Origin: Candidatus Kaiserbacteria bacterium CG10_big_fil_rev_8_21_14_0_10_49_17 | GTDB taxonomy: Bacteria; Patescibacteriota; Minisyncoccia; Phycocordibacterales; JABMNX01 | DNA length: 64,000 bases | Reading direction: 5' to 3' | NCBI GenBank assembly: GCA_002778575.1 | Contig: PFBJ01000003.1 | Location: 11,057 to 75,056 of the forward strand | Shown: positions 4,184 to 53,131 of the stretch, piece after piece | Numbering within the stretch: position 1 is the first letter of the stretch | Layout: each line of letters begins with the position of its first letter | Position numbers and translations under genes: made by a program | Notes under the pieces: model-generated | Seen by the model: the letters and a program-made list of their open reading frames with translations, nothing else | Told to the model about the DNA's origin: nothing | Databases searched by the model: none

Positions 4184-5341
4184 TTACAGAGCACGTAGCG
4201 TTCGGGCAGTTGCAATGTGCTCCTTGGTGTACTGAAGTCGGTAGTTTTGGAACTCTCCGGTTGAGAAGCCTAACTGCGTTGCGAGCGACGCGAGTCGCTC
4301 TACTTCATTAAAATCGATTTTCATCAATTCTCCTACATTGTAATGGTCTTTTGCATTACTTGCAGTAAGAATTATCACCTCCGCAAGACAACTGTAAATA
4401 TCTGTTCGGTGCTGTAAACCGATGTTTATGTTTACCTGTACTGATTCTGTGTGTACCGCTCCACCCTCAAGCACCAGAATATCCGGGCGCGATTCAATTA
4501 CTTTTGGATCAACATTAACCGGTTTTGCATCATCAACTACCAGTGCCCCGTGTTTAATGTGTTCAGATTTTAGAAAAGCGTCTGTCCTGTTTGTTGCTAT
4601 AACGATTATTTCAGATTGTGAAGCGGATTCTACCTCAGTGGAAATCTCAACTGACACACCATTTTGTATCTCATTGAGGTACGTCTTTAGCGCCGTTAAG
4701 CGACTCTCTTTTCGTGCAAGGTCAACCAAGTTGAATTTCGTGCACCCCCGATGCGCAAGAATTTGTGCAGTAGCAGAGCCGATTGATCCAGCTGCACCAA
4801 TTATAGAAATATGGGCGTTTTTTGCATCAATTTCGAGTGCCTCAGCACCGCGCATAACCAAATCAGAGACATTATGAGCGGTAAAAAGCCGTCCGGTGAC
4901 AATGTGGGCTTTTGTGTGTCCAATCAAGTCCTTTCCACCGCGTGTTAAAGAAGCTGAAAGAGCACCGAGGCCGACGTACTGTGCTCCTCGTTTCTCAGCT
5001 AACCGAACAGCTCGAATGAAGCTTTTCCGAGCAGCCTCACGATTATTCACCAGCATATCCGGCGTTATTGGTGAAGAAATCATCCACCCATTAAGCGGCA
5101 CGCCATCACTAAGTGTGCGAGCCCCGGTGATATTGGTAATAGTTACCGGCCAGAAAATGTAAAGCAAAAAAAACTTAACAACTGCGGCAGGTAATAGACG
5201 CATAAACGGGTACATGGTGTACACATCATTGATGTCCCGCGGATGGATGATGAATGCAAATCCCGTTCTCTTTTTCCCAGGAAGAAAACGCTCAAGCAGA
5301 AGGTCATAAAAAGCGCGCGGAATGTGTAGCATTTTTTTCAT
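4184..5341 (-). CDS. NAD(P)-dependent oxidoreductase of the acyl-ACP reductase (AAR)/shikimate-DH-like family
   Basis: Rossmann GAAGSIGS; FAFIIHP, VGLGALSAS, IVTGRLFTAH, EGGAVHT blocks align with cyanobacterial AAR FGLIGH, ISALGGFTS, TTGNTHTA, DGGYPKN. Confidence 0.65.
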   Translation of the reverse strand: MKKMLHIPRAFYDLLLERFLPGKKRTGFAFIIHPRDINDVYTMYPFMRLLPAAVVKFFLLYIFWPVTITNITGARTLSDGVPLNGWMISSPITPDMLVNNREAARKSFIRAVRLAEKRGAQYVGLGALSASLTRGGKDLIGHTKAHIVTGRLFTAHNVSDLVMRGAEALEIDAKNAHISIIGAAGSIGSATAQILAHRGCTKFNLVDLARKESRLTALKTYLNEIQNGVSVEISTEVESASQSEIIVIATNRTDAFLKSEHIKHGALVVDDAKPVNVDPKVIESRPDILVLEGGAVHTESVQVNINIGLQHRTDIYSCLAEVIILTASNAKDHYNVGELMKIDFNEVERLASLATQLGFSTGEFQNYRLQYTKEHIATARTLRAL

Positions 5342-5353
5342 ACACGAGTGTTA

Positions 5354-6052
5354 TTACTGAATCTCATTTGGGGATTCAAGGGCATAGATTGCTTTTACTA
5401 ATCTCTCCGACACTTCACGATACTCCTTGACTCCAAGAGTGTTTGGCATGCCGGTTAGGAAGTAACGTGCCGGCCTTGGTTTTCCAAAATGAACAGACAC
5501 CCTGTGCTTCCGTGAGAAAAATCTGCCTGGGCTCATTCCTGCAGAATTTTTAACATAGACAGGGACTACGGTTGGGCGTACTGCGGCAATCAGGTACCCG
5601 ATACCGCCACGCGCTTTTGCACTCTTTCCATCAAATTTATCATCTCCGGCCTGCGGGAAAACACAAAACGTATACCCCCTCTTTAGCAATAAAACGTGGT
5701 CAGATAATGTTTTTGAATAATTCTGGAGTCCGCCGGGCGCGACTGGCGCTCCCCAAAAACGAAAGAACGGCTCAGAGAGCACATACTTTCTCCACCCTTT
5801 CCACTGATAAACGCTTTGACTGCGCGAAATCCAAAGTAGCGGATTGTGACGCGATACCATCGGAAATGCGCCCCGTATAAATACCGGATCAAACTGATTT
5901 GGATGATTCGAAACAAATATCGTTGGTTTTTCTACGCCCCGAATATTCTCGCGGCCGTAAACCGTAAAGTGAGTAAAGAAATAAATGAGAATTCGCCCCG
6001 GTATCCATGCAAGAGCTTGGACAACCCCAGGCACTATCCCGTAGAGACTCAT
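5354..6052 (-). CDS. plsC: 1-acyl-sn-glycerol-3-phosphate acyltransferase (lysophospholipid acyltransferase)
   Basis: acyltransferase motif I SNHPNQFDP, motif III FPQAGDD; start placed at internal Met giving TAATG overlap with upstream gene (alternative start 6094). Confidence 0.8.
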   Translation of the reverse strand: MSLYGIVPGVVQALAWIPGRILIYFFTHFTVYGRENIRGVEKPTIFVSNHPNQFDPVFIRGAFPMVSRHNPLLWISRSQSVYQWKGWRKYVLSEPFFRFWGAPVAPGGLQNYSKTLSDHVLLLKRGYTFCVFPQAGDDKFDGKSAKARGGIGYLIAAVRPTVVPVYVKNSAGMSPGRFFSRKHRVSVHFGKPRPARYFLTGMPNTLGVKEYREVSERLVKAIYALESPNEIQ

Positions 6053-16748: not shown

Positions 16749-18623
16749 TTATTCCAGTACTGCCTTTACGCGGCGCACGCCAGCTGACGATGATTCCTCC
16801 TTCACGATTTTAAATACGCCGGTAATTTCATTCGTATTTGATACATGCGGTCCACCGCAGAGCTCGCGAGACCACACCACCCCATTGGCGTCTCGTAGCG
16901 TATACACTTTAACTACCTCCGGATATTTCTCCCAGAAGCTCCCCTCGACGCCCTCAGCTTTTGCTTGTTCCTTTGGCATTTCCTCAATTGTCATTTCTGC
17001 CTGCGCCTTGATTGCGTCATTGACATACTGTTCAACCTTATCGAGCGTCTCTCGGTCTACTTTTTCAGGATACGTAAAGTCAAAACGCGTACGTTCGGTA
17101 GTAATATTTGATCCCGCCTGGTGCACATCCTCACCGAGGTATTTTCGCAGTCCTGCAAGCAGTAGGTGTGTTGCGCTGTGGTACATGGTTGTCTTCTCTC
17201 CGCCGTCGGCGAGTCCGCCCTTAAATTTCTGCTCCGCTCCCGCACGCGAGAGCGCTTGGTGCTTCTCCATTTCGCTGCGAAACCCCTCCATATCGACAGT
17301 GATGCCCCTCTCAGCAGCAAGCTCGAGCGTCAGTTCAATTGGAAAACCGTGTGTTGTAAAGAGAACAAACGCATCACGTCCAGAAATATTCTCACCGGAG
17401 CGCTTTTCAAATTCTTTAAGTCCGCGCTCGACTGTTTTTCTGAATCGCGCCTCTTCTTCTTCAATATTTTTCTGTATTACGTCTTTCTGCGCGCGCAGAT
17501 TTGGATACTGCGCTTCGTACTGCTGTATCACAATTGGCACGAGAGTGTGGAGCGTATGCGGCTCCATTTCGAGCGTATCCATCTTCAGTACAGCTCTCCG
17601 CAGTAGCCGTCGAACAAAATACCCTTGCTCTGTATTTGACGGAACGACACCGTCTCCAATCATAAATACCGCCCCGCGAAAGTGGTCCGCAACAATTCGA
17701 AATGCCGCGCTTTCTTCCTCATTTTCACCGTACACTTTACCGGAAAGCGATTCGATTTCAGTAATAATGCCGTAGAGAGAGTCAATGCAAAACACATCTG
17801 AGACATCATTCGCAGCTGCAACAATTCGCTCGAGCCCTCCGCCGAAATCGACATTTTGCTGTGGCAGCTTTTCAAATGAACCGTCGCTTTTTTTAATGTA
17901 CTCCATAAAAACAGAGTTGCCGATTTCCATAAAACGCCCGCAATCGCAATTCGGGTGGCAGTGCTCGCCGAATGCCGTGTCGTGTGCTGTTCCAAAGTCA
18001 TAAAAAACCTCGGAATCCGGACCACCGGGCTCCCCCGCCGGCATTTTCTCCGGAGTCCCAGAGCGACTCCACCAATTTTTCTTTGCCTCATAGGCAAATA
18101 TGCGCTCCCCTTCCCGCATGCCGCGCGCATACCCGTCTGCCTCAGTTCCTATATCGACGGCAATCGCGTCAATTCCCTCTTCCTTAAAGATGCGCTTCCA
18201 TATCTCAATTGATTCTTCATCTTTTGTTATGCCGAGTTTCTCATCGCCGCTAAATACCGTGACGTAAAGTTTTTGCGGGTCAAGACCGATTTCCTTTGTA
18301 AGAAATTCAAAAAACCACGGTAACTGTTCTGACTTGAAATAGTCACCGAGCGACCAGTTGCCAAGCATTTCAAAAAAGGTTGTGTGGCGATTGTCACCAA
18401 CCTCTTCTATATCTTCTGCTCGAAATGATTTTTGTGAATCAACAAGACGCACACCGGATGGATGTTTTTCTCCCAGTAGGTACGGCAGAAGCGGCTGCAT
18501 GCCGGAACTGGTGAAAAGTGTTGTCGGATCATTCTCCGGCACGAGCGGCGCTGACGGTATTTCACTATGCTCTCGCGCTTTAAAAAATTCGAGATATGTG
18601 TGGCGAACTTCCGCTGTTGTCAT
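16749..18623 (-). CDS. alaS: alanine--tRNA ligase, short form (catalytic plus editing domains, no C-Ala domain)
   Basis: N-terminal AlaRS block FTSSGMQ...FEMLGNWSLGDYFK, editing HxxxH...CGGPH; start at MTTAEV gives ATGA overlap with upstream small gene. Confidence 0.9.
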   Translation of the reverse strand: MTTAEVRHTYLEFFKAREHSEIPSAPLVPENDPTTLFTSSGMQPLLPYLLGEKHPSGVRLVDSQKSFRAEDIEEVGDNRHTTFFEMLGNWSLGDYFKSEQLPWFFEFLTKEIGLDPQKLYVTVFSGDEKLGITKDEESIEIWKRIFKEEGIDAIAVDIGTEADGYARGMREGERIFAYEAKKNWWSRSGTPEKMPAGEPGGPDSEVFYDFGTAHDTAFGEHCHPNCDCGRFMEIGNSVFMEYIKKSDGSFEKLPQQNVDFGGGLERIVAAANDVSDVFCIDSLYGIITEIESLSGKVYGENEEESAAFRIVADHFRGAVFMIGDGVVPSNTEQGYFVRRLLRRAVLKMDTLEMEPHTLHTLVPIVIQQYEAQYPNLRAQKDVIQKNIEEEEARFRKTVERGLKEFEKRSGENISGRDAFVLFTTHGFPIELTLELAAERGITVDMEGFRSEMEKHQALSRAGAEQKFKGGLADGGEKTTMYHSATHLLLAGLRKYLGEDVHQAGSNITTERTRFDFTYPEKVDRETLDKVEQYVNDAIKAQAEMTIEEMPKEQAKAEGVEGSFWEKYPEVVKVYTLRDANGVVWSRELCGGPHVSNTNEITGVFKIVKEESSSAGVRRVKAVLE

Positions 18624-18877
18624 TGAATAATTTCTATTAGCTGAAATGCGCCAGAGCTCCACGGCGTAAAGCCGTAAAAGAGAACCTCAAGCGTATACCC
18701 AAGTACCATAAACAAAATACCAAGAAGCGCCAAATTTCTCTCTCGCCGCATTTCATTGAGCACCTTCCGGTCTATTCTGTGCTCTTTTACAATGCGCCAG
18801 TGCACCATTACGACCGTAAGGCCGAGTATAATCTTTCCGACAGTGCCTATGGTAAGTCCCCAAAATAGCAGTGACAT
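18620..18877 (-). CDS. small membrane protein (2 TM, 85 aa)
   Basis: two hydrophobic helices; stop overlaps alaS start (ATGA) indicating coupling. Confidence 0.55.
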   Translation of the reverse strand: MSLLFWGLTIGTVGKIILGLTVVMVHWRIVKEHRIDRKVLNEMRRERNLALLGILFMVLGYTLEVLFYGFTPWSSGAFQLIEIIQ

Positions 18878-24681: not shown

Positions 24682-25533
24682 TTACATTGCTACACCGCTT
24701 GTGCACAAGTCCTGAGCTTCTCGCATTGCTTCCGCGGCTTTCTCGGGTGTTATGCCGTGCTCCGTAAGAACACTTGCGCCCGCCTTAATTGAGCGACACA
24801 GAACAAGTTTGTCTTCAAGTAGTCGCTGTTTTTCCGACTCTGAGAGCGTTGTGAGGCACGTAATAGGGTGCAGACCTGTTTCTGAAACAAGATCCTGTAA
24901 ATTGCCGCTTTCCGGGTAATTCCAGCCGATAAGCGTCAGCCCGACACACTTTCCGTATTCAATTGCATTACCGGTAAATTTTGTATTCGTAATGAGCATC
25001 CCGCGCTCAATGTGCGCTTCTCCCTCTACTTTCGGAGCTTCGGCTAAATCAATAAAGCGCGCCCGCACGTACAGCGCTACCTTTAGGTCGGTTTTCATCC
25101 CGGGACTGTTATGAAATTTTACCTCGGCACCAAATGCATCATCAGCTGACGTCGCGATAAGATCCACCTCGTGTTCAGCGCACTTTCCGTTTGTGATAAC
25201 TCCCGTCATGACGTCGTAGCCTTTCGCGCGGAAAATTTCACTTACGAAATCCTCAAACGGAAAACCGGACGGGCCGAGCGCTAGGATTGCCCGCTTCAGT
25301 GAATAGCGTGCCGCAACGGGACGCACCTCTTTCTCCCGTAAATAATTAAATGCTCGTGAGTAAATTTCTTGAGTCGACATGCCGTCTTTCATTTCAGAAA
25401 CCACCTGCGTTGTTATTTCCGCAATAGTTTTCTCTCCCGCGCCTGCCCGGGTAAGAGAGCGCTTGAGCTTTTCCGGATCAAACGGCTCCCGCTCTCCATC
25501 AGCTTTAACAATTGTGACGCTTTTTTTCTCCAT
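24682..25533 (-). CDS. ATP-cone domain fused to Mrr-type PD-(D/E)xK restriction-endonuclease-like domain
   Basis: N-terminal ATP-cone (VTIVKADGEREPFDPEKLKRSL...), then FEDFVSEIFRAKGYDV...EVDLIA...AEVKF (D...ExK) matching Mrr_cat. Confidence 0.65.
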   Translation of the reverse strand: MEKKSVTIVKADGEREPFDPEKLKRSLTRAGAGEKTIAEITTQVVSEMKDGMSTQEIYSRAFNYLREKEVRPVAARYSLKRAILALGPSGFPFEDFVSEIFRAKGYDVMTGVITNGKCAEHEVDLIATSADDAFGAEVKFHNSPGMKTDLKVALYVRARFIDLAEAPKVEGEAHIERGMLITNTKFTGNAIEYGKCVGLTLIGWNYPESGNLQDLVSETGLHPITCLTTLSESEKQRLLEDKLVLCRSIKAGASVLTEHGITPEKAAEAMREAQDLCTSGVAM

Positions 25534-29057: not shown

Positions 29058-30092
29058 TTAGGCGAGAGTGTAACGGCCGTCTTTGCCGCGCGCAAAAACA
29101 CTCGAATCCTGAAGATTCACAAGAATTGTATTGTCCTTCACGTATCGCTCCTTTCGAACGCGGTCAATAATTTCATCGCGAGTCAGTGGCCCTTCATTCT
29201 TCAAAATCTCACGGATAACTTCCTTTACAACGCCAGTCGAATAGCCCCACTCAGAAAGTGCGTAAAGTCCGCGGCCGACAAGTACAAAACGGTCGTCTTT
29301 AATAAGTTCATTGTGGCACGTAGCCGTATGTGCTCGACGATTGAAGAGTTCATTGATAGCCTTTGCAACCTCTGTAAAGTGCATCGGTGAGCCGTGTCGC
29401 TTAATTGCCAAGTATGCGTAGTCCCGCATGCCTTTTGCACGGACGTTCGGACTTGCCGCAAGCCCCCACTCCCCGAGCGGGTTTTGCCCAATACCCTTTG
29501 ACAGCGAGAGCCATCGGCGAAGTATTTCTTCATCGCGGTAACGTTGGTTAAGATCGCGAAGTTCTGAAAGAAATGTATCGAACAGTTCGGACTCCGGAAT
29601 TAAATCGTCATCACCAAGATTTTTGTATACCGAGCGGAGTGCGTTTTGGACTTGCTCTGCCAATTTTTCATCCGTGTACCAACGGTGTGCAAATTCTGAA
29701 TCTTCCTTTTTTCGAGTAAATTGATTCCCAAGCACTAGAAGAAAGTGTATGTGATTCCGTGTGCTCTCATCCTTTGCGACGGATGCGAGGAGGCTTTCCT
29801 CTGAAATGACGCCTCCGAGGGAGTCAACATACTCCGCCAGTGCCGCAAATGCTGCCGCTTCATTTTCAAATGCCTCGGATTTCTGGATTGTCGCAATAGC
29901 GTAATTTTCAATCTGTCGTACTCGCTCACGCGTAATGCCGTACCGCTTGCCAATCGCTTCAAGCGTGAGGGGATCGGTCTTATCTCCAAGACCGTAGCGC
30001 GCAATGAGTACTTCTCGGGCACGGTCCGGTAGAGCGGCGAGGAGTCGCTTCGTTACCGCTTTTGGTTTAAGTGATGAAATTACGGTTGCCAT
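29058..30092 (-). CDS. DNA-binding protein with N-terminal sigma-70 region-4-like HTH and two C-terminal HARE-HTH domains
   Basis: LTLEAIGKRYGITRERVRQIE (sigma r4.2-like); RFVLVGRGLYALSEWGY and a second PLTRDEIIDRV...SVFARGKDGRYTL winged-helix matching HARE-HTH RFVRVGRGxFALxEW. Confidence 0.6.
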   Translation of the reverse strand: MATVISSLKPKAVTKRLLAALPDRAREVLIARYGLGDKTDPLTLEAIGKRYGITRERVRQIENYAIATIQKSEAFENEAAAFAALAEYVDSLGGVISEESLLASVAKDESTRNHIHFLLVLGNQFTRKKEDSEFAHRWYTDEKLAEQVQNALRSVYKNLGDDDLIPESELFDTFLSELRDLNQRYRDEEILRRWLSLSKGIGQNPLGEWGLAASPNVRAKGMRDYAYLAIKRHGSPMHFTEVAKAINELFNRRAHTATCHNELIKDDRFVLVGRGLYALSEWGYSTGVVKEVIREILKNEGPLTRDEIIDRVRKERYVKDNTILVNLQDSSVFARGKDGRYTLA

Positions 30093-32656: not shown

Positions 32657-33601
32657 CTAGTCCTTAAATACCGGAAATTTTTCTGGGTCAATAGTTCGAG
32701 TAAAGCACTGGAGTCCTGCGTCATGCATCCAGAACTCACTCTCAAATGAGTACCGTGCCACGGAGAGTAACACCGGCTTAACGGCGCCCTCTTGAAATCC
32801 CGTGCTTTGCTGATTGAATGTTGCGCACAGTTTAAATTCAAGCGCTCCGACTTTTTCATATGTGTACGCAAATCCATCTTTTGCTTGTGGGTCCGTTGGC
32901 ACAATGGAGCCGACGAGCGGATCTTCAAGCGCTTCGAGCGTCTCCGGAAGCACTTTCTTTTGCTGATAGTAATTGAGTACTTGGTACTGAATATTTTGCA
33001 GATCATTTACCTTCTGCGAATCATAACGGAGTTCGCGCTGTGTTGCTGGGGTTCCCATGATAAAGAACCCTCCAATAACCGAAGCGAGAATGACAGCCGA
33101 GACAATCCACATAATGAGCTTTGAGTACCCTTCATTCCTCTCCCAGACGCCTCGCATATCAAGGAAGTAGTAAACAAAAATGTCACCGATAACCACAAAT
33201 ACTGCGAGCACCTTAAGGAGAAAGCCTGCCGTGAGTTCTTCACCCCCAAGAAACGCATTAATGAGGACTATGAGATCAATGATAATAGTGGCTCCAGCAA
33301 CAAAGAGCGTAATGAATATGAGCCACCGACGAATACCGAGATCGCGTTTCGCGGGATTTTTTCGAATGTCCTGATTAAGTACCCGCGTGAGAAGAATGTA
33401 AACTGGAAAGAGCACCACAAGTGCCGCTATCGCGAGGCGAATGCCGGTTGAATAGGGGTCAGAGTAAGCAAGCGGATCCTTAAAGGCAACGTCAATATAC
33501 TCAAAATAAAGAGCAAGGAGGCTGATGGTACTCACATAGAGTGTCACCATTGCAGCGAGCCAGAGAAAGAAATCTTTCGGAGACATTTTTATTTTTTCCA
33601 T
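32657..33601 (-). CDS. hypothetical integral membrane protein (about 6 TM plus C-terminal soluble region)
   Basis: hydropathy only. Confidence 0.55.
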   Translation of the reverse strand: MEKIKMSPKDFFLWLAAMVTLYVSTISLLALYFEYIDVAFKDPLAYSDPYSTGIRLAIAALVVLFPVYILLTRVLNQDIRKNPAKRDLGIRRWLIFITLFVAGATIIIDLIVLINAFLGGEELTAGFLLKVLAVFVVIGDIFVYYFLDMRGVWERNEGYSKLIMWIVSAVILASVIGGFFIMGTPATQRELRYDSQKVNDLQNIQYQVLNYYQQKKVLPETLEALEDPLVGSIVPTDPQAKDGFAYTYEKVGALEFKLCATFNQQSTGFQEGAVKPVLLSVARYSFESEFWMHDAGLQCFTRTIDPEKFPVFKD

Positions 33602-41669: not shown

Positions 41670-42173
41670 TCAAATCGAATTGACTCGTAAACCAAATACA
41701 CGAAACGCAACACCTTCAAAAGTCGCCAGGACCCGCTCAGCCGTTCGAGCAAAATCTCCATCGCCTGAGACAATAATTACTTCGAGTTTGATATCGCCGC
41801 TGTACACAGTGCGATGGTTCGTGACAGTATACCAGATGTCATCAACTATGAGCCGGTCAACGTCCTTGGCCTGCTCAACAATGAGCGTGAATTCCGCTTC
41901 CTCCGCTTCAAGCACATTGCGTTTTGTAAGGACATCCGCAATGACGTAATTTGGACAGTAGACTCCTGCATGCACAACTTCCGGTTCACATTTTCTTTCC
42001 TTTCGGAGTGTCCGAATAATGTGGTCAAAAAGATTTAGCCAATTGACATCGACAATATCCGTCTTGTCGTGATCTGCTATTGAGAGGCCATCGCGAATGG
42101 AAAGTAGAATGTTCGGTGCATCAACAAAGATCGCCACAGGAAGAACCTGCGGCGGTTTAGCATTTCCGTCCAT
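41670..42173 (-). CDS. NYN-domain (LabA-like, PIN-fold) putative ribonuclease
   Basis: VAIFVDAPNI...IIVSGDGDF acidic residues characteristic of NYN/LabA. Confidence 0.7.
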   Translation of the reverse strand: MDGNAKPPQVLPVAIFVDAPNILLSIRDGLSIADHDKTDIVDVNWLNLFDHIIRTLRKERKCEPEVVHAGVYCPNYVIADVLTKRNVLEAEEAEFTLIVEQAKDVDRLIVDDIWYTVTNHRTVYSGDIKLEVIIVSGDGDFARTAERVLATFEGVAFRVFGLRVNSI

Positions 42174-42235
42174 GTGTTCCTCCGTGTATATGCTATGTGG
42201 AGTAAAACCCAAAACTCATATCAAGTCAACCAATA

Positions 42236-42529
42236 CTACTCCTCTGAGAGGGCGAGTGCGGCATCGTAGTCATCGTTTGGCGCTAGCTTATTCGGCAATG
42301 CATGCCCGCACCGGACACAGCGGTGAATAAGTCTGTGCACACCTGCTTTCTGCTCTAGCGCAATAGGCTCCATCAGCCCGCCGCAATCAGATGCCCTGTC
42401 TCCTGGATGCACGTCAACATGTTTACTCCACAGACACGATGGGCAGTGATTCGTAAAACCGCTGCCAATAACACTTTCACCACAATGCTCACAGATGAAA
42501 TTTTCAACTGTTTTTGTAAAGCGCTTCAT
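42236..42529 (-). CDS. RNHCP-domain zinc-ribbon protein
   Basis: FTNHCPSCLWSKHVD plus CxxC...CxxC. Confidence 0.65.
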   Translation of the reverse strand: MKRFTKTVENFICEHCGESVIGSGFTNHCPSCLWSKHVDVHPGDRASDCGGLMEPIALEQKAGVHRLIHRCVRCGHALPNKLAPNDDYDAALALSEE

Positions 42530-42592
42530 ACTGCAATACTAGCCTTTCAATATGCTGAACAAAAAGGTCGCACACTGTGCGACCTTCTGAAA

Positions 42593-43615
42593 TTATTTTC
42601 GTAACTCCTCCTCTGTAGCTAACCGACGAGCTCCGACATGGAGACCCACGATTGCATCTCTTTCGGAAAGTCCGAGACGCCGTTTGTTGGAAATGTCGTA
42701 GACCCCCCCAACACTCTCGGAATGCTCCCCGTGAATGCCTCGAACCGAAAGTCCGAGGAGTTTTGCGAAATCATCAAGTTCGCCACTTTTCTCGAGCGCA
42801 GGGAGTTTCATATGGAAGCTCGCACGCATTGCCGTTCCAAGGTTTGTTGGACAACTTGAGAGGTATCCAAGCTGTTGTGTGTAGGCAAATGGGACGTTCT
42901 TTTCGATTTCAGAAATCGCACGTACCAGCCTGCTATAGACAGAGAGCAGGTCACCTCCCTGCTCAAGAGAGATAATACGAAGGTGATCTTCCTCATTCAC
43001 CCACACAATGAACTTCTTATCGTTTGAAAGAAAAATGCCGCGTCCTGCCGGCCAGTCCCGATTGACTCCTGCGCTCTCAAGGAAACGATCCCCTTGCTTG
43101 AAGAGCACGTGGTCTTCAATCAGTTTATTTCGTGTTTCCTCATCGAGATCTGCAAGCGAGTGATACGTGCCTGCCAAATCATCAGGAAGCTTTGAGAGAG
43201 CATCAACAACTCGCCGCTCAACTTCCAGACGCTCGTCTAGAGACATTCCTGGCGTTAGCGCAAAACCGTCAAGATTTCGCCCAACACGCGCGCGCGTTGA
43301 GATAACACGATCACGGTAAAGCTCAGCTCCGGTAAACTGCCCCGGCTTGATCGTCATATCCTGCGGGTGTGCAAGAGAATCAACATTTTCAATGTTGTGG
43401 TACTCCGCAATAATGGGACCAAAAAGACCCCAAAACACCTCGTACGATTCAGCATCCGGCGCATAGACGCCGATACTGCTGTCCGGATTTTCAACTCCAG
43501 AGCGTGTAATATCATCAAGGCTAAAGCCTCGATTCGTCTTCGCTCTTCGCAATTCGGATGCAACATCCTCGGTAAAATGCTTGGCTAGAAGTGATTGCTT
43601 GACTGGCATGTGCAT
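42593..43615 (-). CDS. ATP:guanido phosphotransferase, full-length arginine kinase-like (phosphagen kinase with N-terminal helical domain)
   Basis: active-site CPTNLGT, VWVNEEDHLRIIS, N-domain ESYEVFWGLFGPIIAEYH matching metazoan AK not McsB. Confidence 0.85.
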   Translation of the reverse strand: MHMPVKQSLLAKHFTEDVASELRRAKTNRGFSLDDITRSGVENPDSSIGVYAPDAESYEVFWGLFGPIIAEYHNIENVDSLAHPQDMTIKPGQFTGAELYRDRVISTRARVGRNLDGFALTPGMSLDERLEVERRVVDALSKLPDDLAGTYHSLADLDEETRNKLIEDHVLFKQGDRFLESAGVNRDWPAGRGIFLSNDKKFIVWVNEEDHLRIISLEQGGDLLSVYSRLVRAISEIEKNVPFAYTQQLGYLSSCPTNLGTAMRASFHMKLPALEKSGELDDFAKLLGLSVRGIHGEHSESVGGVYDISNKRRLGLSERDAIVGLHVGARRLATEEELRK

Positions 43616-43736
43616 AGGTTTTTTCCTTCTGATAAGTGACCACCGAAGAGTGTACAGTGTATGTGTCTATTTTTCAACTAAGCATCACTAAAATTAAAAA
43701 CCGCTCATGGTGGTGAGATGGGGATTTCTATTCCTC

Positions 43737-49498: not shown

Positions 49499-50980
49499 CT
49501 ATCGTTTCTTTTGAATTAGATTTTGAAAGTTTATTCCCTTCCGTCGCAGTACGATTCCGGCGCCAATCACAAGGAGTACCAGACAGCTAAGGGTGATTAA
49601 GACGCTTTGCGCAAATGGACTGAAAATACTGACACTCGTAGAACACGGCGCCCCCACAAGCGACTCGCACCGGTATGTATTAAACAGCTCTACTGGTTCA
49701 TGTCCCTCATTTTTGAGTTTTGCGTATACACCGAATGACTGCAGTCCTGAGACACCGTTAAGCAGTTCGATAAATTCCTTCATAGGCGACGGAATCACCT
49801 CCCGAATGCGCACGGTATCACGCACTCGCCCATCCGGCTCTGAAATCGCAATGTCCACGGTTGTAAACCCGGTCGGCTCGCCGCGCTGCTCCAGACACAC
49901 CACGACATTGCTTTTTGCGGTTAGTGGGTAAGAGTCGACGCCGAGGTAGCGTATCGCGGGATATGCGCCGCGGTATTGGTAAAACCGAACAATGTAAAGC
50001 GAGTGCGCCCCTCCCCACGAAACATCAAAAACAATTGAGTGCAATCCCGGTGCTCGAGTGCTTACTGAAATAGTCTGATTCGCATGCGCGTCAGGTCCTA
50101 AAAGTAAATTGCTAGGCCCGTCAGACGCATCAAGCAGGTACGTTGTTCCAAATGTGCCGCCACTGTAGTGCTTCCACGACACGCTAACCTCCTGCGATTC
50201 GTTACTAGTAAGCGTATTGTCGATCGGAATAGTAACGGTTACCTCTTCTTGCTCCGGCGCTTCAACTACAGCACCCACGCCCGCATACGGCTCACCTGCA
50301 AGGGTTACAGTACTTCTATCTACATACACACCGCGCGAAGGACCAGAAATCTTAAACGGCACATACCCAACTGAAGAATTGTCCGAATACGGAGTGCCGA
50401 TAATGTGAAATGCTCCTGAGGCAATGAGCTCAACTGCCGTGTAGTAGTCTCCCGCCACAGTTCCCCGCGGGACTACCCAAAGAAATGAAAGTGATTCAGA
50501 CTCTCCGTGTTGTAGTGAAAAATTTTTGGGCAAGTACCACTCCTCAACTATATGATCTCCGAAACGTCGTCGCATATTCTCATCCGGCTCTTTCCTGAAT
50601 ATCCGAATGCGAATGTGTGAGTCCGGAATCGGGTACGGACTGTGATTCTGTATACTTCCGGAAAATGAAATGCTCTCGTACGGCTCATACACGTCCTTCT
50701 CCGTTTGCAGGTCAACCGAGACAGCGCGCCAGTCTTCTGTGCATGCCCGTACCGGACTATTCTTTTCAGCTGTTGCTGTGTGCGGGACAATATCAATACG
50801 CTCTTCCGCGCTCTTAGGAATAATGAAACCCCGTCCTTCAAAAAGCTCAACTGGATACTGGAGTGCCCCGCGTGGCGGGACAGGTGCCCCGTCTTTTATT
50901 TCAAGCGGGGGCAGTGTCTCTTGCGCGTGCACAGCTGTTGCAAAGACAAGGAAAGGAATGATAAGGAGAAATTTTTTCAT
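49499..50980 (-). CDS. secreted cell-surface protein with cleavable signal peptide and C-terminal TM anchor plus basic tail
   Basis: MKKFLLIIPFLVFATAVHAQE signal; C-terminal LITLSCLVLLVIGAGIVLRRKG. Confidence 0.6.
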   Translation of the reverse strand: MKKFLLIIPFLVFATAVHAQETLPPLEIKDGAPVPPRGALQYPVELFEGRGFIIPKSAEERIDIVPHTATAEKNSPVRACTEDWRAVSVDLQTEKDVYEPYESISFSGSIQNHSPYPIPDSHIRIRIFRKEPDENMRRRFGDHIVEEWYLPKNFSLQHGESESLSFLWVVPRGTVAGDYYTAVELIASGAFHIIGTPYSDNSSVGYVPFKISGPSRGVYVDRSTVTLAGEPYAGVGAVVEAPEQEEVTVTIPIDNTLTSNESQEVSVSWKHYSGGTFGTTYLLDASDGPSNLLLGPDAHANQTISVSTRAPGLHSIVFDVSWGGAHSLYIVRFYQYRGAYPAIRYLGVDSYPLTAKSNVVVCLEQRGEPTGFTTVDIAISEPDGRVRDTVRIREVIPSPMKEFIELLNGVSGLQSFGVYAKLKNEGHEPVELFNTYRCESLVGAPCSTSVSIFSPFAQSVLITLSCLVLLVIGAGIVLRRKGINFQNLIQKKR

Positions 50981-50981
50981 A

Positions 50982-52751
50982 CTAAAATTCTTCAAAATCT
51001 GGAATCAACCCTACCGTTATCGAATCTGACACGTCCCCTTGGGCGCTTTCGCACACAATAGTAAACGTACTTTTTTGGTCAACGCGAACGCTTGTCGTCC
51101 CGTCCCACTGCGTAAGATTGTTTGACTGCCGACGCACGATACCAGGTCCGCTTAATTCGCAAGAATTTTTTGTAATATCGACTGCCGACCACGACAAGAC
51201 AATACTGTCACCAGCTCGTATGAGCGAATCCGCCGGAATGACCGCTATATCAACGGTCGGCGAGGCCACATACACCTCAACCGAATCTTCTGCCGGCGAC
51301 CCAATACCGGAGCACAGAATTCGATACACCGTACTCGGAGCACTTGGTACTACAACAAGCCCTGTACTGTTATGCGTCTGTCCGCCGGTTGAGAATCCTG
51401 CTCCGCTGCAGCTGCTTGCATTGTTGCTGCTCCACGTAAGCAGCGCGGATTCTCCGTCAGATACAGTCGCAGAGTTTTCACCGTTCACACGAAGGTCAAC
51501 CGAAACAGGCAGAGCCGGATTGATAGTAATGTTGTGCGTACTCCACGCTGAACGGTTCCCTATTTCATCCTCTGCAAGCGCCTGAAACGTGTAAGAGCCG
51601 GCGGATCCCCACCCGTATGAACTGTCTCCACTTGACCCAGATGAGACATACCCACTTGAGGGGACCCACTCATCAACTGAAGCGTTCTCGTCCCAGTCGA
51701 TACCGTATCGCAGCGTGTCTCCATCCGGGTCGGTTGAAAGAAACGTAAACTGTGTCAGTACCGACGGGTAACTGCTTGCCGCGCCGCTAATGACTGGTGG
51801 TGTCGGTGCGCTATTTGGCGTTTTCGCGTCACCGACGAACACAATACTCTGCGCGGGCACTGCGACTGAAAAAGCGCCGGATTCTCCAACGCGCCGCATC
51901 GGAGTATTGCTTCCCGCACAAAATGGATTGTTGACTGTCTCTGAGTATGTGCCAACCGGTATGGTAACGTCCCAAAAACGAATGGTCAGACGCTTTGTGA
52001 TTATGTCTCTGCTGTCATAGCGATAGTAAAAGTGTCCATCGACTGGCTCAAAGGTGAATCGAGACTCAATTGACCCTGGGCTGGTAACAGTACAAACAAA
52101 ACCAGTCGAATCGCACGAAAGCCCCGCACTGCCATTATGCTCAACACTCATGACCGGCTCATCGAGTGAAAGAGACGCATACACATCGCGACCTCTGGTA
52201 GTACCGAGGTATTCACTGGCAGGACATGTACTGTCTGCTTTCTCCTGTGCTGTTGATTGGCGAGGAGACGGCGGATTTAGCCACACAGTGTAGTAGAGAT
52301 TGTACTCAACACCCACAAAGTTGTCCGGTCCGGCATATGGAGTATTAAATGTTGAATCAATGACCGCTCTGGGTTCCCAATGCCCATTGAAGGTGCCTGG
52401 AACACTACTACTGGACCAGGTAATGTTTGAATCTGACAGCGGGCGAGGACGAAATTCTATAACCTGTCCAACAGAAACATCAGCATTTTGCGGAAGCGGC
52501 TGCTGTGTCGCGGTATCGATAACATCAACGTAGTACTGAACTGAGACAGTCGGACTGGTCAGGAAATCTGCAGTCTGCCATCCGCCGGGGTATGTTGTTG
52601 CATTCCAAATCTGATACCAATAATAAATTGGGTTTTCAAATTGAATTGAGCCGGGAATTGTACTGCTCCAAGAAGCAGAGAGAGCGTGCGCAGAAAATGG
52701 CGCAGAAAAAAGCAGTACGCATAAAACTAAACCGCGCCACACTGTTTGCAT
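50982..52751 (-). CDS. secreted protein with PKD/Ig-like repeat(s)
   Basis: signal peptide VLCVLLFSAPFSAHA; DPDGDTLRYGIDWDENAS PKD-like motif; 1-nt spacing to downstream surface-protein gene. Confidence 0.6.
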   Translation of the reverse strand: MQTVWRGLVLCVLLFSAPFSAHALSASWSSTIPGSIQFENPIYYWYQIWNATTYPGGWQTADFLTSPTVSVQYYVDVIDTATQQPLPQNADVSVGQVIEFRPRPLSDSNITWSSSSVPGTFNGHWEPRAVIDSTFNTPYAGPDNFVGVEYNLYYTVWLNPPSPRQSTAQEKADSTCPASEYLGTTRGRDVYASLSLDEPVMSVEHNGSAGLSCDSTGFVCTVTSPGSIESRFTFEPVDGHFYYRYDSRDIITKRLTIRFWDVTIPVGTYSETVNNPFCAGSNTPMRRVGESGAFSVAVPAQSIVFVGDAKTPNSAPTPPVISGAASSYPSVLTQFTFLSTDPDGDTLRYGIDWDENASVDEWVPSSGYVSSGSSGDSSYGWGSAGSYTFQALAEDEIGNRSAWSTHNITINPALPVSVDLRVNGENSATVSDGESALLTWSSNNASSCSGAGFSTGGQTHNSTGLVVVPSAPSTVYRILCSGIGSPAEDSVEVYVASPTVDIAVIPADSLIRAGDSIVLSWSAVDITKNSCELSGPGIVRRQSNNLTQWDGTTSVRVDQKSTFTIVCESAQGDVSDSITVGLIPDFEEF

Positions 52752-52816
52752 GTGTTTTAGTATACCGCAGAGGTACGCTGTCATAGCTATTTCTGTGGGA
52801 AAAGAAACACCCGCCG

Positions 52817-53131
52817 CTATGCGGCAGGTGTTTTGATTTCCCCGTTTTGGACTGCAACCCACAGTCGCTTTACACGATACGAGAGAATGCCCGTCTGACA
52901 AAAAAATTGATACTCGTTTCTTATTTTTGAACGTGTTGAGGAATTGCGCAGTGCACTCATACCGATAACATGCCCTTCAGCCGCTATAAATATACCGAGT
53001 GTGCTCTTTACCTGAGGACAGAGGTGTTTTCGAACAATACGAAGCACACTATAAGCTCGTGAGGTATACTCCCCAAACTCTCCAAAAGTTTGCTTCGCAA
53101 TGAGCGCGCGCAACGGTGGTTTCTTTCTCAT
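52817..53131 (-). CDS. small basic hypothetical protein
   Basis: ORF with AAAGGGG RBS; no homology. Confidence 0.3.
   Translation of the reverse strand: MRKKPPLRALIAKQTFGEFGEYTSRAYSVLRIVRKHLCPQVKSTLGIFIAAEGHVIGMSALRNSSTRSKIRNEYQFFCQTGILSYRVKRLWVAVQNGEIKTPAA

Follow-up and report, generated by a model that had tools for sequence, protein, structure and literature searches.

A complete two-domain arginine kinase in Candidatus Kaiserbacteria groups with a CPR-rich clade of bacterial enzymes

The kinase locus and its surroundings

The window, as we call the whole 64-kb stretch of DNA that was analysed, contains bacterial housekeeping genes: DnaK/DnaJ, RpoA, AlaRS, LeuRS, AspRS/LysRS-type and Trp/Tyr-type synthetases, UvrA/B/C and Ddl, and further MnmA, Tgt, histidine kinases and one tRNA-Ala. 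Its minus strand carries an open reading frame in which the motifs ESYEVFWGLFGPIIAEYH, VWVNEEDHLRIIS and CPTNLGT are all present (Table 1); some gene callers choose the second ATG (43609) as the start, which gives a variant of 338 aa (P0001). The original prediction had placed a kinase with these motifs at exactly these coordinates, on a bacterial chromosome and in a reduced genome, and was correct on all three points, the host being Candidatus Kaiserbacteria (CPR/Patescibacteria), an ultra-small groundwater bacterium; the LeuRS of the window matches that of Candidatus Kaiserbacteria bacterium CG10_big_fil_rev_8_21_14_0_10_49_17 at 100% identity. It had further called a phosphoarginine energy buffer here unexpected, which was not supported; an exact-sequence look-up in NCBI and UniRef returned an identical public protein (PIT91441.1 / UniRef100_A0A2M6WF58) that both databases already annotate as 'arginine kinase'.

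Table 1. Features of the arginine kinase locus, in window coordinates
Feature	Position	Strand	Details	Basis
Arginine kinase CDS	42593..43615	-	340 aa; stop codon included	ORF list, Pfam, exact protein match
N-terminal helical domain, ATP-gua_PtransN (PF02807)	43409..43600	-	residues 6-69	Pfam
C-terminal catalytic domain, ATP-gua_Ptrans (PF00217)	42605..43225	-	residues 131-337	Pfam, Foldseek
Guanidino-specificity loop D45-S-S-I-G-V-Y51	43463..43483	-	= Limulus D62-S63-G64-V65-G66-I67-Y68	residue map
NEEDHLR block	42977..42997	-	residues 207-213; E209 = E225, catalytic base candidate; R213 = R229	
Active-site Cys motif C255-P-T-N-L-G-T261	42833..42853	-	C255 = Limulus C271	sequence, residue map
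Shine-Dalgarno-like AGGA	43624..43627	-	8 nt before ATG 43615	sequence reading
Sigma-70-like promoter candidate TTGAAA-17 nt-TACACT	43649..43677	-	34 nt upstream of start codon	consensus scan
Intrinsic-terminator-like hairpin	42562..42588	-	12-bp stem, 3-nt loop; starts 5 nt past stop codon	

The hairpin that follows the stop codon (-18.2 kcal/mol, z = -4.6, 0/200 shuffles as good) overlaps a U-run, and the U-run continues after it. Together with the AGGA ahead of the start codon, this strong hairpin suggests that the kinase gene is probably transcribed alone, from its own ribosome-binding site and to its own terminator. The promoter candidate carries little weight, as shuffled sequences contain at least as many sites of this kind as the region does. 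As to detection, the hairpin was not listed by the consensus terminator scan and was clear on RNA folding.

The kinase gene is flanked by a gene for a UPF0259-type membrane protein upstream and by genes for RNHCP and NYN-domain proteins downstream. A functional gene cluster or an operon partner was considered and rejected; when 13 window neighbours were compared by tblastn with 80 bacterial arginine kinase (AK) loci, RNHCP, NYN and UPF0259 were found beside none of the other AKs, and RND pumps, YchF and DUF5671 lay near them only sporadically. As no neighbour recurs beside the AKs of other phyla, the genomic context is silent on function. Among the approximately 40 ORFs scanned in the 64-kb window, there were no genes of arginine uptake or metabolism or of energy metabolism.

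Since the source is a metagenome-assembled genome, the gene could in principle be eukaryotic or other foreign DNA that reached a CPR genome through faulty assembly or binning. However, four independent assemblies (from ENA, Logan and JGI samples) carry exactly the same kinase gene and neighbours; the recurrence of the same junctions in assemblies from different samples excludes an assembly chimera. The gene is also interior on a contig of 95.6-106.8 kb, with CPR-typical and housekeeping genes on its flanks, and two related contigs are syntenic (see below). Its composition is ordinary for the window: GC is 0.500 against 0.483+-0.018, GC3 is 0.466 against 0.471+-0.033, and its codon-usage distance from the window average ranks 26th among 36 genes. 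The probability that the gene is an artefact of this kind is, in our estimate, negligible.

Domain architecture, active site and fold

Pfam recognised both domains of a phosphagen kinase. The N-terminal helical domain matched PF02807 with E=8.4e-24 (84 bits vs a cut-off of 25.7) over profile positions 3-66 of 67, and the catalytic domain matched PF00217 with E=7.1e-71 (238 bits vs a cut-off of 22.4) over profile positions 1-201 of 203; the proposal that this is a full-length phosphagen kinase with its N-terminal domain was thereby confirmed. When PDB sequences were searched, arthropod and cnidarian AKs covered residues 7-329 or more of the query at E ~1e-99, the Limulus enzyme aligning to residues 7-329 with E=6e-99. 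Over 315 aligned residues, the query and Limulus AK are 50.2% identical, which matches the 45-50% identity to arthropod AKs that had been estimated by eye.

In order to compare active sites, residues 24-346 of Limulus AK were used as the reference for residue mapping; the mapped residues are the established arginine kinase catalytic set, known from the 1BG0 transition-state structure. The residues of the Limulus arginine-binding loop, D62, S63 and Y68, are kept in the query as D45, S46 and Y51, and R193, which in Limulus is the partner of D62 in bridging the domains, is kept as R177. All five phosphate-binding arginines (R124, R126, R229, R280 and R309) are present as R108, R110, R213, R264 and R292; the guanidinium-flanking glutamates E225 and E314 correspond to E209 and E297, with E224/E225 falling on E208/E209, and the reactive cysteine C271 is kept as C255. 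The catalytic residues mapped from Limulus AK are invariant across 19 bacterial-type homologues (alignment A1), as are the entire NEEDHLR block, the CPTNLGT motif and, within the specificity loop, D45, S46, G49 and Y51. By its sequence, the protein is a complete two-domain phosphagen/arginine kinase that is apparently active.

Limulus polyphemus AK (1BG0 / 1M15), the monomeric reference, shares the two-domain architecture of the query at near-equal length and with a TM of 0.84-0.86. It differs in its N-terminus, which is ~17 residues longer, at G64->S47 and V65->I48 of the specificity loop and at R312->H295, in a single residue that is deleted from the query before the R309 position, and in that the query belongs to a bacterial host. 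The top PDB match, by sequence and by fold, was the two-domain AK of Anthopleura japonica (4RF6-4RF9), each domain of which aligns to the entire query (333-336 bits). The Anthopleura enzyme is however a tandem duplication (~715 aa), and its catalytic loop contains three inserted residues (G-EDA-G); the query has neither feature and is only 49-51% identical to it.

The substitutions relative to Limulus (G64->S, V65->I and R312->H) raise the alternative that the query is a phosphagen kinase for another guanidino substrate (D-arginine, agmatine-like or taurocyamine-like), in which case it would maintain no phosphoarginine pool. Specificity can indeed shift within the family, as a trematode taurocyamine kinase is close to AKs (41-42% identity). 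The loop of that taurocyamine kinase (NAYNPGALL-PRSCDLNAY) is nonetheless quite unlike that of the query, which has the length of the Limulus AK loop, aligns to it without gaps and retains D62, S63, G66 and Y68. The Ser at the G64 position also occurs in domain 2 of the Anthopleura AK, which was crystallised with L-arginine and has a DSS-x-GVY loop as well (DSSCGVY), and the guanidinium-positioning residues E225, C271 and E314 are kept. We therefore regard a substrate other than arginine as improbable.

An AlphaFold2 model, built from the 19-homologue alignment, reached a mean pLDDT of 86.7 and a pTM of 0.86. Confidence was low only at the N-terminus and in two loops, one of which (residues ~291-300) aligns to Limulus 309-318. 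The N-domain helices of the model span residues 9-13, 16-22, 33-42, 55-60 and 62-72. Solved arginine kinases, the best PDB matches in Foldseek, matched the model over its full length with a TM of 0.83-0.89; AK, CK and TK structures superimpose on it within this same TM range over 332-346 columns.

The catalytic domain of McsB (PDB 6FH1, 8WTB and 6TV6) is homologous to that of the query, and some JGI records label homologues of the query 'protein-arginine kinase'. On this basis the query might be a McsB-like kinase, which would tag proteins for degradation or regulate a repressor and would not act on free arginine. McsB, which targets protein arginines, has however no phosphagen-kinase N-domain, whereas the query carries this domain, which closes over free arginine. 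The McsB chains 6FH1 and 8WTB aligned only to query residues 102-337 (E ~1e-29 in the PDB sequence search), and beyond the catalytic domain the query has no match to them; it stops at residue 340, without the additional C-terminal dimerisation / pArg-binding domain. All five NCBIfam equivalog models for McsB / protein-arginine kinase, in alignments that begin at about residue 100, scored far under their cut-offs, the best at 160.9 bits vs 385 and the others at 148 vs 500, 104 vs 471, 90 vs 381 and 71 vs 679. The scanned genes near the kinase included no mcsA, clpC or ctsR. A McsB-like role is accordingly very improbable. The original prediction had set the protein apart from McsB and had named McsB-clade best hits or a failing N-domain alignment as what would overturn it; the N-domain alignment holds and the McsB scores are far lower.

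Distribution, phylogeny and synteny

When 185,579 species-representative genomes were scanned by pattern and tblastn, relatives of the kinase appeared at no fewer than 394 loci (~0.2%). Reviews confine full-length bacterial AKs to 'a few' Proteobacteria (PMC6429109, PMC11492440), and the original prediction had likewise taken such kinases to be known from only a few bacteria, an assumption that the count of at least 394 loci contradicts. The best 80 of the 394 loci are mostly from Campylobacterota (Sulfurovum, Sulfurimonas, Sulfurospirillum, Arcobacter and Nitratifractor), and include Desulfobacterota, Gammaproteobacteria (among them Moritella PE36 and a Shewanella), Bacteriovoracaceae and one spirochaete; ten are from CPR genomes (six Paceibacterota, three Saccharibacteria and one Brennerbacteria). 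One CPR kinase locus sits on a 653-kb contig, and an additional CPR arginine kinase is PIR69364.1 of Candidatus Niyogibacteria. In the searchable literature, arginine kinase or phosphoarginine is nowhere mentioned together with Patescibacteria, the candidate phyla radiation or Parcubacteria.

The annotated AKs of CPR and other bacteria (PIR69364.1, those of Paceibacterota, Saccharibacteria and Brennerbacteria MAGs, and those of Bacteriovoracaceae) share with the query its clade, its length and its invariant catalytic residues, and are 55-59% identical to it. They differ in that they come from other species and, outside the query's own lineage, have no gene neighbourhood in common with it. The AKs named in a 2019 review, from Desulfotalea, Myxococcus, Moritella and Sulfurovum, have an origin that the review calls 'still debated' (PMC6429109). 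These proteobacterial enzymes (Desulfotalea psychrophila, Sulfurovum lithotrophicum, Myxococcus xanthus and Moritella sp. PE36) are likewise full-length and possess all catalytic residues, and those of Desulfotalea, Sulfurovum and Myxococcus are described as characterised, real arginine kinases (PMC11492440; PMC6429109); enzymatic activity and, for M. xanthus, a developmental/stress role are reported. The Moritella PE36 and Sulfurovum relatives are 48-52% identical to the query. Among the 120 matches listed for the search with the Desulfocapsaceae member L037, no Desulfotalea protein appeared by name.

An unrooted NJ tree (193 sequences, 335 columns kept, 200 bootstraps) was computed from full-length kinase domains extracted from 80 bacterial loci, 108 database homologues, which included 36 marine-eukaryote transcripts and four named animals, and four PDB-derived animal sequences. 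Three groups were apparent: a CPR-rich clade A, a eukaryotic group and a Campylobacterota-dominated clade C, which is split from the rest at 92% bootstrap and thereby parts the Moritella and Sulfurovum AKs from the query. The query lies in clade A (72 sequences, bootstrap 82%), in which every named member is bacterial and no eukaryote occurs. Clade A holds all 12 CPR sequences of the tree, along with Bacteriovoracaceae, Moraxellaceae, two Gammaproteobacteria, a Desulfocapsaceae MAG and 52 unnamed metagenomic proteins; it is poorly resolved inside, with the immediate sister of the query at a bootstrap of 19%. The 30 sequences nearest to the query are 55-59% identical to it, ~340 aa in length, single-domain and bacterial wherever named; identity is 40-51% for the named eukaryotes and 41-47% for the 36 marine-eukaryote proteins.

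Two related CPR contigs, L085 and L087, which carry kinases from the sub-neighbourhood of the query, have their genes in the same order as the window. On L085, the gene order is kinase (60% identity), a convergent RND pump (48%), an HlyD-like gene (42%), a flavodoxin-like gene (62%) and YchF; on L087, it is kinase (58%), RNHCP (49%), an unknown of 169 aa (59%), a flavodoxin-like gene (60%), YchF (66%) and DUF5671 (60%). The divergence of the kinase (58-60% identity) is close to that of YchF (66%) and of the flavodoxin-like gene (60-62%). That the kinase is about as diverged as the housekeeping genes beside it fits co-inheritance from a common ancestor, and orthologues that have diverged to 58-60% at the same chromosomal position speak against its having been captured recently from a eukaryote. 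With protein identity of only 58-60%, the synonymous sites of the syntenic orthologues are saturated. The kinase is absent from the equivalent stretch of a third relative, L088 (LeuRS 66%, YchF 66%, RNHCP 55%), which indicates that the lineage can do without the gene and carries it patchily; the contigs of two other relatives end before the syntenic site.

These observations bear directly on the idea, put forward in the original prediction, that the kinase was acquired from a eukaryotic host. A recent horizontal capture of a eukaryotic AK, from a host or a neighbour, by a reduced symbiont would account for the 50% identity of the query to arthropod and cnidarian AKs, and transfer from eukaryotes is discussed in the literature as a possible origin of bacterial AKs (PMC6429109; PMC11492440). 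The 30 nearest sequences (55-59%) are however bacterial wherever named, in comparison with 40-51% identity for the named eukaryotes, and all eukaryotes fall outside the clade with 82% bootstrap. Orthologues stand in conserved order on related CPR contigs, where they have diverged like YchF and the flavodoxin-like gene, and neither GC, GC3 nor codon usage is anomalous. CPR bacteria are, moreover, known as episymbionts of prokaryotes and not of eukaryotes. Recent capture is thus highly unlikely, and the suggestion of a eukaryotic host as donor was not sustained. Synteny, matched divergence and ordinary composition together argue for a long residence of the kinase in the lineage and against its recent acquisition from a eukaryotic host; from its sequence relationships, the kinase looks bacterial by inheritance.

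A more distant eukaryotic source is a separate matter. If the gene passed in ancient times from a eukaryote to a bacterium and then spread to other bacteria, the CPR-rich clade as a whole would be secondarily bacterial. This would agree with a tree in which clade A, the eukaryotes and clade C are joined without a root, and with the patchy occurrence of the gene in bacteria (at least 394 loci in 185,579 species genomes, ~0.2%); moreover, as summarised in PMC11492440, Suzuki et al. 2013 suggested that bacterial clusters falling with ciliates or invertebrates arose by horizontal transfer. The direction of transfer is, however, unreadable from an unrooted tree without an outgroup. The bacterial clades are broad, extending over several phyla and hundreds of species, and clade A is deep (~55% identity within it); both features suit an old bacterial presence or a transfer from bacterium to eukaryote just as well. 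We consider an ancient transfer a real possibility, although a somewhat doubtful one.

Proposed function and meaning

The best explanation of the locus, and one that we consider likely, is that it encodes a catalytically competent, monomer-type AK (EC 2.7.3.3) that serves as a temporal energy buffer, from a solo gene that belongs to a CPR-rich bacterial clade and is a long resident of its lineage. The analysis itself shows the domain architecture, the fold, the conservation of the catalytic and arginine-binding residues, the bacterial surroundings in the tree, the synteny and the ordinary composition; we infer that arginine is the actual substrate, that the enzyme is active and that it has an energy-buffering role. 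The kinase would catalyse the reversible reaction Mg-ATP + L-arginine <-> Mg-ADP + N-phospho-L-arginine. If it works like other phosphagen systems, high-energy phosphate would be stored as phosphoarginine when ATP is plentiful, and ATP would be quickly regenerated from phosphoarginine when its supply falls. Because a very small cell would probably gain little from spatial buffering, temporal buffering of ATP is the plausible role, and a phosphoarginine energy buffer is, on this analogy, the most plausible function. Alternatively, the kinase may contribute to stress or dormancy tolerance, by analogy with the Myxococcus enzyme; the AK of M. xanthus is reported to be needed for fruiting-body and spore formation (PMC11492440).

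A further-reaching reading extends the bacterial inheritance of the kinase to a subset of the CPR, namely Kaiserbacteria, Niyogibacteria, other Paceibacterota, Saccharibacteria and Brennerbacteria, whose cells are ultra-small, fermentative and host-dependent. In these, AK would be old and vertically kept, phosphoarginine would serve as a battery for host-free periods, and clade A would form a branch of the phosphagen kinases that is bacterial and perhaps ancestral. We put this forward tentatively, as it is rather unlikely to hold.

Teaching usually presents phosphagen systems as the way in which eukaryotes, mostly animals and protists, meet bursts of energy demand. The finding is incremental: public databases already give the protein its correct name, its reaction is textbook chemistry, and the more striking idea of capture from a eukaryotic host found no support. 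Mildly new are the CPR-rich clade of full-length AKs and the stable placement of the gene in the Kaiserbacteria-like lineage, both absent from the searchable AK literature. The census extends full-length AK to at least 394 loci in species-representative genomes of bacteria, a dozen or more CPR genomes among them, and in the Kaiserbacteria-like lineage the kinase has been kept at one chromosomal location across deep divergence. Should an old vertical CPR lineage prove true, it would shift the debate over bacterial AKs as eukaryotic imports. If active, the kinase would be one of a small number of energy-management devices that can be identified in organisms of minimal metabolism, and, as one soluble enzyme, it offers a simple, testable handle on CPR physiology.

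Accessory region around the arginine kinase gene

The gene for the full-length arginine kinase is followed directly after its stop codon by a clear hairpin with a U-run. The consensus terminator scan missed it, an example of the false negatives that the scan produces; the structure was spotted on visual inspection of the sequence, and folding bore it out. Downstream lie genes for an RNHCP-domain and an NYN-domain protein (table). RNHCP was found again in the same variable region of two related CPR contigs, one with a syntenic kinase (L087) and one without (L088), and its recurrence even where the kinase is absent indicates that the stretch from Ddl to the flavodoxin-like gene acts as an accessory region of changing content, where genes for the RND pump, SLT, kinase and NYN are present in some relatives and missing from others.

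Features of the window (all on the minus strand)
Feature	Position	Length	Remark
Alanyl-tRNA synthetase ORF	16749-18662	637 aa	
ATP-cone and Mrr-type restriction-endonuclease domain fusion	24682-25533	283 aa	
Sigma-70 region 4, HARE-HTH and DUF3320 segments only	29058-30092	344 aa	
NYN-domain gene	41670-42212	180 aa	downstream of kinase, with RNHCP gene
RNHCP-domain gene	42236-42529	97 aa	directly downstream of kinase
Hairpin with U-run	42562-42588		
Unassigned ORF	49499-50995	498 aa	between UvrC and UvrA
Unassigned ORF	50982-52901	639 aa	between UvrC and UvrA

Kinase homologues in other genomes

One of the 80 bacterial arginine kinase loci listed (the best 80 of 394), L038 (CAYSAI010000003.1), is labelled uncultured Gammaproteobacteria; a few hundred bases from its kinase lies a DUF5671-like gene (about 4738-5644), 24-31% identical to window positions 32657-33601. 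Since DUF5671 was otherwise encountered in this analysis on CPR contigs only, this MAG may be taxonomically mislabelled or misbinned.

Six arginine-kinase homologues of 466-507 aa, five in the Campylobacterota-dominated clade C (P0013, P0024, P0057, P0082 and P0117) and one in the CPR-rich clade A of the window kinase (P0106), carry 120-170 extra residues; they come from short metagenomic contigs, and group with the bacterial-type clades, not with two-domain eukaryote proteins.

Unassigned and lineage-conserved genes

The two large ORFs between UvrC and UvrA adjoin with a slight overlap; neither gave a Pfam match at E<=0.001, and both were likewise without annotation in a second listing. At only 637 aa, the alanyl-tRNA synthetase ORF stops just behind tRNA_SAD (residues 584-632), its second additional domain, so that the C-terminal extension usual for this enzyme is apparently missing.

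The sigma-70 region 4/HARE-HTH/DUF3320 gene, an unusual and conserved gene resembling one for a transcription factor, is the next gene downstream of LeuRS both in the window and in each of the three relatives examined (L088-L090). The ATP-cone/Mrr fusion gene occupies an identical position in the same three CPR contigs, and is therefore a conserved feature of the lineage.
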